The notes beneath the pieces were generated by a model. That model ran no database searches. It had not been told where the DNA came from and was given only the letters and a program-made list of their open reading frames with translations. Shown in pieces: positions 2,918-50,558 of a DNA stretch of 64,000 nucleotides. Both the position numbers and the translations under genes were made by a program. The DNA lies in the NCBI GenBank assembly GCA_951406725.2, contig OX597833.1:67704001-67768000 (forward strand), in the 5' to 3' direction. The DNA comes from Octopus vulgaris. Taxonomy: Eukaryota. The first letter of the stretch is position 1; each line of letters begins with the position of its first letter.

Positions 2918-3011
<94 letters not shown>

Positions 3012-3397
3012 GTGGCGAAATGCACGCAGGACGAAATGCTTGGCGGTACTTCGCCCATTGTTCGGGGTTAAATAATGAAGTACCAGTTAAACACTGGAAT
3101 CTATATGATCAACACATTCCCTCACCTAATATGAATGCCCTTGTGGCAAAATTTGAAAACATTATTATTATTATTGTTATTATTATTACTATTATTATTA
3201 TTATCATCATTATTATTATTATCATCATTATTATTATTATCATCATTATTATTATTATCATCATTATTATTATTATCATCATCATCATCATTATCATTTT
3301 ATTGTATTTTTTGGTTTCCATTTTACTTTCCAAATTACTCTTTAATCAAAATTAAATCATTAAAGCGTAGTGGTTAATACAGATTATTATGTAAATC

Positions 3398-3466
<69 letters not shown>

Positions 3467-13352: not shown

Positions 13353-13396
<44 letters not shown>

Positions 13397-22760: not shown

Positions 22761-23474
22761 ATTCTGTTCCGTTAGAGAAAATTTCAATGCATGAATCGTT
22801 AGATACTCTCAGCTTCCGAATATACCTATTTCTTTACTACCCACAAGGGGCTAAACACAGAGGGGACAAACAAGGACAGACAAACGAATATACCACCTTC
22901 GAAATCACCGGGAGGTAGCACTTCCTTCCCCAGCCTCACTTTCGTTTTCAAATGAAACTTAAAAAAGTAGATCAGAGCTCGACCGAAAAGGAAGAGACCT
23001 ATCCTCAATCATTTCAGCCACCGTCCATCACACCGCCTCTTTCCCCGTTGCTGCTAGACAGAGGAACGCCGTCAGCTCTGCCTTATTAAAGGTGGGTGGT
23101 TGTAGGGGATGGAGCCACGCGATCGATTCGGCCCATAATCGGATTCGTCCTACCCTCGATAATAGCTACTCGACAAAACTCCATTAGTTAGCAATTCTCG
23201 GACACTGCACGAATGCGTGCAGGAGGGTCACGGGATCTTTTCCTTTTGAACGGCAGTTTGTAACAATTTTTAGGTAACTAAAAAGTTTCAAACTTCGTAT
23301 ACTGGTAGAATGTGTTTATAAAACATCATTTTCTCTTGGTTTTATTGAGAAAATTCTATAGTTTGTAAGATATTTCGTCTGAAAATCCGAGCATTTCGGC
23401 AATTTTAACCAATCGATTACCTCCATTCAACTAAAATCATTTGCTGCGTCTAAAACTGAGACAACATCCTGTCA

Positions 23475-23502
23475 CTAACCCTCAACCTAACCCTAACCCT
23501 AA
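23475..23502 (-). repeat. Short telomere-like (TTAGGG)n tract inside the TIR element
   Basis: CTAACCCTCAACCTAACCCTAACCCTAA. Confidence 0.75.
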
Positions 23503-23619
23503 TTTTCTTTCTTAATTGTTAAATTAATTTAATTGTTACGCATGTAAAAAAAAGCGAAAGCAATGGAAAATAATTTAAACAATTAACAAACAAAATAATT
23601 CTATAATTTTATACACACG

Positions 23620-24185
23620 CTTTCCGTACGTATACGGCGTGCGGTCGAGGCGGCGGCGCGCTCGCGCGTCGTCCGTCCTGGCCGTGCCGCCGGCGTTTCT
23701 CCGGCCGACCTTAGGCGGGCGTCGGCAACGTCAACTCGGCTACGGCTATCCCGTCCAGTACGAGAGGAACCGCGGGATCAGAGCAACGGTTTGCGCGCTC
23801 GCTCGATAGAGCGGTGGTGCCAGGCTGCCTCTGAGCGATAACGGCTGAACGCCTCTAAGCCGGAACCGTAGCCGGACCCGAGTTGTTTTCCAAAAGCGTC
23901 TCAACCTCAAGGCGCATGCCTTAGCTCGGCGTTCGCCGTCCGCCCGTCGCGTTCGCCCGGCGAGCGGCAGCGTCGCCGGCGGAATTGCCATTCGGGGACG
24001 CGGCGGCGGCTGCGGCGTTGGCGCCGTGGTCGTCTGCTCGTCGTCCCGCCCCGACTAGTTCGAAGAGATCGAGACGAAAGGGATCGCTTGCATACGACCC
24101 GACTTGCCGTTCGGAGTGACGTGCTTAGTAGAGCAGCTACCACACTGCGATCTATTGAGTCTCTTCTCGCGAACGACACGATCCG
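23620..24185 (+). rRNA. 28S (LSU) rRNA 3'-terminal fragment, dispersed copy and not a complete gene; probable 3' ETS to about 24375
   Basis: Sarcin-ricin loop AGTACGAGAGGAAC at 23757-23770 closed by ATCCCG/CGGGAT; CTGAACGCCTCTAAG at 23845-23859; AGTAGAGCAGC..CTGCGATCTATTGA at 24127-24158; canonical order with GC-rich expansion segments between. Confidence 0.9.
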
Positions 24186-24653
24186 CCCCTTCGAGGCGGA
24201 GAAGCGGGAGGAGGTGAGGAAAGATGGCGAAATTGTTGCGGCTTGGAGTCGGAGTTACGAAGTGTTGCGTTGTGTCTTGTCTTGTCTCGTCTCGTCTCGT
24301 CACGTCTTGTCTGCGTCGAACGACTCGGCGCGCGGTAATAGTCGTCGTCGCCGCCGCAACCGCCTTCGTGAGAGCATAGGATTGGTTAAATTTCGAAAAA
24401 TTAAACTGCGTTAAACAAACAAATTACAATTTTCTCAAGAAAGCCAAGAGAAGAAAATGTTTTATTTTGACACATTCTACCAGTATACGAAGTTTTAAAG
24501 TGTTTAGTTAACTAGAAATTGTCTGCTGTTCAAAAGGAAAAGATCTGGGTCACGTCGCTCTGCTCGCATGTTGGACAGTTCTACTTGGCAAGCGTGGTCA
24601 GCTGACACTTTACATCATACCCAGCTAAATAAGCTGAGCGTTTTTCATCAAAC

Positions 24654-42331: not shown

Positions 42332-44007
42332 TTTGATACTTTGATACTTTGATAGGTTTTGGCCATTATTGGCCCAGGCCATGTCTAACTTAATAGCACC
42401 ACCTGGTGAAGTCTTTCAAGTCAGAATTTGGGCACTATGGCCCACTCAAGTAGAGAGTTATTGTTTACAGAGACATATCCAGGTGTAGGGGGTTTATCCG
42501 GGATTTCTTGAAGGAATCTGTCCAAAGACTTCTTGAACCCTATAGGGTCAGTTTCTGTTTTAATGTGTTTTGGTGTAATGTTAAAGAGAGCGGGGCCAAT
42601 TGAGGTGAAATAATTGTGCCGTATTGTTGTTATGAGATGAGAGTGCGATTTTTGTTTTGGACGGATGGCACGGGGCCCAAGCCTTGGATGTACCTTAAAG
42701 GTGATACCAACATCATTTGGGCAATGCTGATGGAATATTTTCCACATCATGCAGATGATGTAGCGCTCACGACGACGTTGGAGAGAATAGAGTTTTAGCT
42801 TTTCTAGCCGACCCCAATAGTCGAGGCCTGTCATGCCATCTATCTTTTTTGTGATTGCCCTTTGAGGTGCTTCAACTTTTATGATACCTTGTATTGTGTG
42901 GGGAGACCACAGTGGACAACAGTATTCAAGGTGGGGTCGGGCAAAAGTGGAGAAGAGAAGGATAATGGTGTGGATATCTCTCGACTGGAAAGTTCTGAGA
43001 ATCCAGGAACACATTCTGCGGGCCATGTCAACTTTGGTGTTTATATGAGTGGCCCAGCTTACGTTGTTGTCCACAATTACTCCCAAGTCTCTGATGTTGT
43101 TGGACGCCGCGAGAGTTTCACCTGAAGGAAGGGAGTATGGGAGTTTCAGGGCATCCTCTTTTCCAAAGTGGATTAGCTCAAATTTATCCTCGTTCAGCAG
43201 CATATTGTTTTTTTCTGCCCATTGGATAACAGCCAGTAGATCTGACTGAAGGCATGTCCGGTCACTCGCCTCATTTATGACCTTCTGTAGCTTGGAGTCA
43301 TCTGCAAAGATTTTTATGTTGCTGTGCTTGATGATGTCATTAATGTCATTAATGTAAATGATGAAAAGAAGTGGGCCCAGCACAGTGCCTTGCGGAACGC
43401 CACTACTGACTTTGGCTGGGCTTGATTTTACCCCTTCAACTACAACATGTTGAGATCTGTCTGTCAGGAAACACTTAATCCATTTCAGTAACTTTCCAGA
43501 GACACCAATGTTGGATAGTTTTTTCAATAGGATCTTGTGATCGACCCTGTCGAAGGCCTTACTGAAATCAAGGTAGATGACATCGGTGTTGGAGCCCTCT
43601 CCCAAAGCTCTCAAAATGTCCTCAAAGTGATGCAGGAGCTGCGTTAGGCAGTCCCTTCCATTACGGAACCCATGTTGGTTGGAGATCAGCCGTCTGTTGC
43701 TTTCCAGAAATTGGGTTATTCGAGATCTCACCACCCTCTCAAATACCTTGATGATATGAGAGGTGAGTGAGATCGGACGGTAATTCACTGCAAGGGACTT
43801 GTTTCTCTTTTTGAAAACTGGGACAACAGACTGGGACAGAAGGTTTTTTGGAATATAGCCAGCATCCAGTGAGTTTCTCCACAGATTAGCAAGGGGAGAT
43901 GCAAGTTGGTGTCGACACACCTTCAGGACACAAGCAGGGAACCTATCGGGGCCTACTGCTGAATTGTGTTTTATTTCGTTTATCGCCGCTAAGACATCAG
44001 GGGCACT
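42331..44007 (-). mobile_element. 5'-truncated CR1-group LINE inserted in a (TA)n array
   Basis: RT ORF, 3' UTR with stem-loop GGCCA-ATAA-TGGCC and (TATCAAAG)3 tail at 42331-42354. Confidence 0.95.
42421..44007 (-). CDS. LINE ORF2 reverse transcriptase, 528 uninterrupted codons, no endonuclease domain or native start
   Basis: [64 protein letters not shown] motifs. Confidence 0.93.
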
Positions 44008-44034
44008 ATATATATATATATATATATATATACA

Positions 44035-44094
<60 letters not shown>

Positions 44095-44164
44095 TATATA
44101 TATACACATATATATACAGTATATATATATATATATATATATACAGTATATATATATATATACA

Positions 44165-44220
<56 letters not shown>

Positions 44221-44234
44221 TGTATGTGTATATA

Positions 44235-44270
<36 letters not shown>

Positions 44271-49838: not shown

Positions 49839-50125
49839 TAATAATAATAATAATAGTAATAGTAATAATGGTTTCAGATTTTGCCAGAAGGGCAGCCATT
49901 TTAGGAGACGGAATGAGTCGATTATATCGACCAAATTATTCAACTTTTACTTGTTGAACTTTGTTATCGCACGAGACCCTTATTTTCTGCTGTTATTGTG
50001 TTTTTGCTGTTCTTTACTTCTCCATTTTGTGTGAAAAAGGAAACTTAGCCGTATTATGGCGAGCTACGCAAAAACCGCTGCGGCGGAGAAGAATTCGATG
50101 CGGATGATAGGCGTATTATGATACC

Positions 50126-50558
50126 GGGTCTTTTCGGTTTGAACGGCAGTTTTTTCTAGCGGTGTCATATGAAATTGTTACCCATAATTATGACCCTAGT
50201 ATCGATCTATTGCATTTCAATCTGGGTTAGGGTTAGTTAGGGTTGGTCAGGGTTAGGGGTGAGGGGAAGGATATCTTTTTTCTTCACAAATGTAAATAAA
50301 CCCAATCTGTTTCTTAAACGAGAGACATATTCATACGGCACAGAATGTTTTTTTTTACCTCAATAGACGTCATTGATTGGTTGAAATTGCAGAAATTGAA
50401 GAAAAAAACAATAAATATCTTACAAAATTTAGAATTTTCTCAATAAAGCCAAGAGAAAAAGATGTTTTATAAACACATTCTACCAGTATACGAAGTTAAA
50501 AATTTTTTAGTTACGCGGAAATTATTTAAAAATACTGCCGTTCAAACTGAAAAGATCG
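50126..50558. mobile_element. Merlin-like MITE (433 bp), relative of 23233-24546 without rDNA
   Basis: TIRs GGGTCTTTTCGGTTTGAACGGCAG / CTGCCGTTCAAACTGAAAAGATCG; perfect 8-bp TSD ATGATACC at 50118-50125 and 50559-50566; TTAGGG-like tract at 50224-50266. Confidence 0.9.

Follow-up and report, generated by a model that had tools for sequence, protein, structure and literature searches.

Host sequence replaces the interior of a transposable element both in Pack-MULE capture and in the filler DNA of transposon breaks, and an A-tail together with a target-site duplication (TSD) of its own are general features of SINEs. Among the elements that carry parts of the rDNA, SINE28 is a retroposon found at many loci that contains 28S 3' ends (PMC4994717). 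A DNA transposon of Daphnia, Pokey, carries internally repeats derived from the IGS and from ITS2 (PMC3849761), and Pokey and mPok are listed as rDNA-bearing elements in a 2024 review (PMC10946416). An earlier annotation of the locus described here (made from the letters alone; hereafter the first-pass annotation) had started from the premise that rDNA is not carried by cut-and-paste elements, which was therefore wrong. The review's table of rDNA-bearing elements includes no DNA transposon with 28S coding sequence (PMC10946416), and none was found in our literature search. Foreign DNA can also be acquired as class 2 templated sequence insertions, characterized by Onozawa and Aplan as copies of a few hundred bp from a distant template that may be RNA or DNA (PMC5110952). 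Merlin elements, in turn, are described by their 5'-GG termini, a TSD of 8 or 9 bp and arms that range from 24 to 462 bp (PMC8101967); recently active Merlin and R2 families have been reported in an octopus genome, in an account whose first part says nothing on rDNA cargo (PMC13282606).

Here we describe a MITE that encloses a piece of rDNA in a 64,000-nucleotide window of Octopus vulgaris DNA (G000:C20:67704001-67768000), and its comparison with the 2.8 Gb in 227 contigs of the genome searched. The sequence GGGTCACG occurs in the window at positions 23225 and 24547 only, with 1314 bp between both copies (23233-24546), in agreement with the proposal that an 8-bp TSD encloses a unit of this length (Table 1). 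The unit interrupts an old dispersed repeat with 429 candidates in the genome at about 72% identity. In seven of nine homologues of this host repeat the left flank runs directly into the right flank through a single copy of the site, with no element (of the nine read-through comparisons, four exceed the 95th percentile obtained with random stretches). These homologues indicate that the TSD around the element is real and the insertion genuine. The GC content per 50 bp is 0.50-0.82 in the cargo, versus 0.16-0.46 in the arms.

Table 1. Features of the composite element and its surroundings (positions in the window).
Feature	Position	Strand	Evidence or remark
Old dispersed repeat, host of the MITE insertion; resumes after 24554	22897..23224	+	about 72% to relatives
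Left target-site duplication GGGTCACG	23225..23232	+	window search; one site copy in host-repeat homologues
Complete left MITE arm (GGATCTTTTCC...), including hairpin loop CGTA at 23629-23632	23233..23637	+	91-96% to the 39 best other copies, 2844 candidates; hairpin folds
3-bp microhomology CGG common to MITE and rDNA, 5' junction of the cargo	23635..23637	+	
3' end of 28S rDNA, 551 bp, sarcin-ricin loop 23757-23770	23635..24185	+	Rfam; 99% to array units
First 184 bp of 3' ETS with (GTCTY)n repeats	24186..24369	+	blunt 3' junction, no poly(A), no TSD
Outer 177 bp of right MITE arm	24370..24546	+	97-98% to the 39 best other copies, 1525 candidates; inner ~200 bp absent; last base C->T
Right target-site duplication GGGTCACG	24547..24554	+	window search
			

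The cargo is rDNA, as had been suggested for a GC-rich stretch of about 750 bp, a size that we correct to 735 bp (23635-24369). Positions 23731-24184 match the Rfam model LSU_rRNA_eukarya (model positions 3006-3399 of 3401, 134 bits, E 2.3e-33, gathering score 50), and the three LSU landmarks reported in the first-pass annotation are confirmed in the correct order, at 23757-23770 (the sarcin-ricin loop), 23845-23859 and 24130-24158. The mature 28S end was placed from the Rfam match and from retrocopies that stop at the same base; the stretch with GTCTC and GTCTT repeats beyond it, previously called ETS-like, is indeed 3' ETS. No TSD or poly(A) belonging to the cargo itself was found at either junction. 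The cargo substitutes for about 200 bp of the right arm of the MITE, and its 5' junction is located 2-5 bp to the right of the hairpin loop CGTA (23629-23632). It does not include the rDNA promoter region and is probably inert. Many genomic matches cover query positions 411-1145, and a discrete SINE-like family was considered; this idea was rejected given that the common ends are merely the limits of the query.

Seven rDNA array units with an 18.35-kb period are assembled on the same contig, 44 Mb from the cargo, and dispersed rDNA copies also exist as distant donors. The cargo differs from the array units by six substitutions in 684 bases outside the microsatellite, four of its substitutions (in about 687 bp) are absent from all 23 other copies, and in its indels it agrees with L003, L015 and L016, which are dispersed copies, and not with the array as assembled. 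Over the 601 bases compared up to position 24235 it shows two substitutions, and none of 190 CpG positions has undergone a transition, versus up to 33 in old dispersed rDNA copies; judging from these few substitutions and the unchanged CpG positions, the cargo is young. The arms differ from the family majority at 13 of 581 bases and the cargo carries four private changes in 687 (Fisher p 0.013); when only private arm changes are counted, the comparison is 7 of 581 versus 4 of 687 and is not significant (p 0.36). These values are suggestive, though not proof, of a cargo younger than the arms and of a MITE that came first.

The MITE belongs to an abundant family, with 2844 candidates for the left arm and 1525 for the right arm, from which the best 40 for each (80 out of thousands) were scored. 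Intact copies are near-palindromes of about 790 bp without cargo, with arms of about 400 bp, that start with GGATCTTTTCC and finish with GGAAAAGATCC; their centre can be folded into one long hairpin, whose loop measures 4 nt in two of the three intact copies folded. The TSD of the family is 8 bp long, exact in 32 of 47 copies and with at most one mismatch in 41, and lengths of 7 bp and 9 bp were observed in three and two of the 47 copies, respectively. The family termini are GGATC...GATCC, and the right end of the window copy, ...GATCT, has its terminal base changed. The two arms of the window element are 82% identical over 137 bp. The inverted arms described previously as imperfect TIRs of about 170 bp are therefore present, but this is not the true TIR length, since the 177 bp on the right are the remnant of an arm of about 400 bp. 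Compared with the intact copy L082, the window copy lacks positions 402-614; its left arm is whole, and the outermost 177 bp are left of its right arm.

Both arms are present at 52 of the 55 distinct MITE loci examined; 47 of these loci were aligned, and eight were set aside (three without one arm and five with mis-set ends). Among the 47 other copies in the alignment, to which the check for cargo extended, none holds a foreign insert of at least 20 bp, and the insertions of this size in three of them are all duplications of the element's own centre. The centre is also where copies without cargo break: among 25 copies chosen because their left arm is intact, a choice that biases the tally, nine show an indel of at least 20 bp, and all nine indels begin at positions 390-417, five being deletions of 80-246 bp that extend into the right arm. 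The copies L099 and L083 show deletions of 218 and 246 bp that are nearly like the loss in the window copy, without filler. One deletion of 174 bp is common to 13 of 22 copies picked by their right arm, which indicates that internally altered derivatives can spread. Other members and relatives show further arrangements. An older relative of the same MITE, about 80% identical over 206 bp and with an apparent 8-bp TSD ATGATACC, is located in the window at 50123-50557. In L026 the family ends are flanked by an inverted, not direct, 8-bp repeat (CGAACTCG / CGAGTTCG), and in L041 an inverted 8-bp repeat (GAGGGCTC / GAGCCCTC) lies between two outward-facing family ends.

The element had been called Merlin-like. 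The family resembles non-autonomous Merlin elements in its GG ends, its 8-bp TSD and an arm length within the published range (PMC8101967), and this part of the label stands. At the 50 inspected of at least 150 loci with PF12762 (DDE_Tnp_IS1595), no transposase was found between TIRs of the MITE, nor was an autonomous Merlin with the same TIRs. Related TIR pieces are located near 12 of these 50 loci, never as facing pairs and across unrelated transposase clusters, and near none of the 30 inspected MULE loci (66 listed); the search for an autonomous partner covered Merlin and MULE loci. The clear Merlin family of this genome (L047, L048, L050, L051, L061), which has 8-bp TSDs and open frames of 305-320 aa in several copies, has GGCAC TIRs, unlike the window MITE. 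Taken from the GG ends and the TSD only, Merlin-like is plausibly a fair label.

We consider it fairly likely that the composite is a one-off patch left by break repair in a resident, abundant palindromic MITE, and the presence of 28S coding sequence and ETS inside it is probably an ordinary accident and not a new mobile family. The observations from which we start are direct: the family has 8-bp TSDs and no cargo, and the window copy, which occurs once, has rDNA joined beside the loop and has lost an arm segment. In the proposed sequence of events, the MITE would have inserted first, creating the TSD; the AT-rich palindrome would then have extruded a hairpin or cruciform that was cut at its tip, and the right end of the break would have been resected by about 200 bp. 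The left end would have joined rDNA via the 3-bp microhomology and the right end bluntly, the gap being likely filled by copying the 28S/3' ETS region. That the hairpin broke at its tip is suggested by the position of the junction beside the loop, together with the cargo-free copies broken at the centre and the missing arm segment. Several features of class 2 templated insertions are found at this locus, namely a distant intact donor, no TSD or poly(A), a deletion of about 200 bp and microhomology, which is restricted to the 5' side. Templates would be amply supplied, given the 154 candidates for the 28S 3' end among loose rDNA (best 40 scored), the large dispersed pieces and the copies that end at the mature 28S end.

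Pre-rRNA contains the 3' ETS, so the extension of the cargo past the mature end is no proof of a DNA template, and the earlier argument that the cargo was captured from DNA for this reason does not follow. A free rDNA fragment and a reverse-transcribed pre-rRNA are about equally probable as the template. The ETS motif at the end of the cargo was found in 20 rDNA places, seven in the array and 13 dispersed, and two of the 13 stop at it, the cargo and L012, with ends within one base of each other. L012 (with L241 and L134; G000:C1:149683671-149696387) is a 12.7-kb rDNA piece flanked by a 266-bp direct duplication, and carries a 1.75-kb non-autonomous R2-site element. It begins about 150 nt downstream of a putative promoter motif, the promoter being placed from the repeat structure and the motif, and is a candidate for a near-full-length retrocopy of pre-rRNA; alternatively, since a CCGCCTT motif is present at both of its ends, it may stem from a DNA break linked to sequence. 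As the direct donor of the cargo, L012 was rejected by its different indel pattern and seven substitutions. The coincidence of the two ends, although noticed post hoc, keeps the RNA route open. The fuller reading, in which the cargo is a reverse transcript of pre-rRNA, cargo and L012 both record a fixed pre-rRNA 3' end, and a LINE or R2 enzyme copies whole Pol I transcripts into distant breaks, is rather unlikely when taken together. If their common 3' end marks the pre-rRNA terminus, transcript ends would be readable from genome sequence.

Reverse transcription might also have acted with the hairpin being irrelevant: a LINE-type reverse transcriptase (R2 or other) would have nicked the MITE and introduced a 5'-truncated pre-rRNA by target-primed reverse transcription, with deletion of the target. 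Microhomology restricted to the 5' junction, as in the cargo, fits LINE 5' truncation, and the end common to the cargo and L012, two of the 13 dispersed copies, points in the same direction, as do the R2-like elements with long open reverse transcriptase frames and the 28S copies that end at the mature 3' end, with A-tails in two of the three inspected. However, the cargo has neither a TSD nor a tail, the MITE site is unlike the R2 target, the promoter position used for L012 is inferred, and the 5' junction lies at the hairpin tip, which is also where the cargo-free copies break; we regard this origin as quite unlikely.

The survey of dispersed rDNA, in which the extent of each locus was mapped by BLAST to the array, also showed other elements and rDNA pieces outside the array. 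R2-like retrotransposons are located at or beside the 28S R2 target in L009/L149 (C20), L003 (C11), L010/L133 (C5), L013 (C2), L017 (C14), L015 (C33) and L020 (C18), whose open frames reach 1276 aa on C20 and 1311 aa on C5, with an RVT_1 match at E 1.6e-28. The R2 site holds an insert in one of seven array units versus 10 of 16 dispersed rDNA loci, several of the others ending short of the site. A second element of 1.64-1.78 kb without a long open frame occupies the R2 site in L011 and L012 (C1), L014 (C27) and L019 (C16), with copies 76-98% alike; it has a 3' motif in common with the R2-like elements and resembles the non-autonomous SIDE elements (PMC3414825). Large dispersed rDNA pieces include spacer DNA, and two are near unit-length and permuted (L010, L011). 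The first, within G000:C5:100.915-100.938 Mb (L133, L010, L143, L245), is a whole rDNA unit in non-rDNA. Its start coincides with the 5' end of a full R2-like element and its end with the R2 target of the next unit, as if cuts at two neighbouring R2 sites had freed it. The second (G000:C1:41.379-41.400 Mb; L146, L011, L137) is circularly permuted and covers the array unit from position 13376 round to 13370; part of its interior is inverted and its spacer is rearranged, and it is a candidate reintegrated rDNA circle. Simple 3' transduction was considered for the dispersed pieces with R2 plus 28S, and was rejected for most of them because upstream rDNA or spacer is attached. About ten of 40 scored copies end at the mature 28S 3' end, namely L177 (C5:7247002), L178 (C23), L179 (C7) and about seven more. 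L178 and L179 have A-tails, and L177, which has a short inverted 5' piece, matches the array without differences; these copies are SINE28-like processed rRNA retrocopies. The window itself contains, at 42421-44235 on the minus strand, a LINE-type fragment with a 604-aa open frame (RVT_1 E 4e-31). The R2-related dispersal of rDNA is probably a better lead than the MITE composite.

The first-pass annotation proposed a transposing family of Pack-type elements. According to this explanation, the element would have captured rDNA elsewhere and transposed here whole, its sisters being lost, polymorphic or collapsed in the assembly. Host sequence between TIRs inside one intact TSD that surrounds the entire composite is what such an element would show, altered derivatives of the family do amplify (the 174-bp deletion mentioned above), and the age gap between arms and cargo is not significant on private changes. 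Against it, each junction, searched as a 26-nt pattern with at most two mismatches, was found at one place in 2.8 Gb (reversed controls, none), so that repeated junctions with different TSDs are absent and there is no family in this assembly. A search with the whole unit, in the best 40 of 3522 candidates, recovered, besides the unit, 23 places in rDNA and 16 that show arms only; none of the 23 other rDNA matches is flanked by these MITE arms. Where the upstream flank is shown, all 22 rDNA matches continue as 28S and not as MITE, and with the downstream flank 15 of 16 continue as ETS. The changed terminal base at the right end is a further point against transposition of the whole unit, which seems to us improbable. 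The alternative already considered in that annotation, a secondary insertion into a resident MITE, agrees with the single copy and with the break-repair patch that we favour, but the TSD or poly(A) of the cargo that it implied is not present.

Support for the composite was also sought in other assemblies of reads. X1 and X2 each provide a contig that crosses from the unique left flank into the MITE and extends there for 26-28 letters, below the 31-letter threshold for bridging; these contigs show the left edge of the MITE at the site, and the interior is outside the contigs listed. Among the listed Logan contigs of X1, X2, X15 and X5 (32 of 564 pieces shown) none bridges the right junction, contig cover at 24354-24369 is absent in three of the four runs, and the contigs of X1 and X2 did not show the private alleles that the cargo has at 23957 and 24020. 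Logan contigs drop rare variants, so a missing bridge neither supports nor refutes the composite; those animals may lack the cargo, it may have been filtered from the contigs, or it may be an error of the genome assembly. The raw reads X22 and X23 are uninformative, with 2 and 26 reads placed and none on the unique flanks. A chimera in which reads of the rDNA array were stitched into a hard-to-sequence palindromic repeat, for which speak the unbridged right junction, the unseen private alleles and the fact that long palindromes are error-prone, is very unlikely in view of the four cargo substitutions found in none of 23 other copies, the indels like those of L003, L015 and L016 and not those of the array, the two clean junctions within a 73-Mb contig, and the entry of the X1 and X2 contigs into the MITE.

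As it stands, the composite matters little, being one more dispersed rDNA fragment; sister copies, if found, would raise its importance. The cargo differs from SINE28 (PMC4994717, as far as described there) in that it runs on for 184 nt beyond the mature end, lacks both tail and TSD, and is unique; the SINE28-like combination of an end at the mature 28S end, an A-tail and an own TSD is absent from it, and the copies L177-L179 are nearer to SINE28 than the cargo is. As in Pokey and mPok, a DNA-transposon shell holds rDNA-derived sequence (PMC3849761; PMC10946416). Pokey, however, is piggyBac-like, targets the 28S gene and, according to these sources, has its IGS and ITS2 repeats in nearly all copies (PMC3849761; PMC10946416), whereas the window composite is a single copy with 28S coding sequence and ETS located outside the rDNA. 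The class 2 insertions share with the cargo the lack of TSD and poly(A), a deletion at the site and microhomology (PMC5110952); unlike the cases described there, the insertion here is located at the tip of a MITE hairpin and has rDNA as its template. With Pack-MULE capture it has in common the replaced interior, without the later amplification. The locus neatly illustrates a palindromic MITE that behaves as a fragile site and catches filler sequence, which corresponds to the opening step of Pack-type capture with no subsequent spread.
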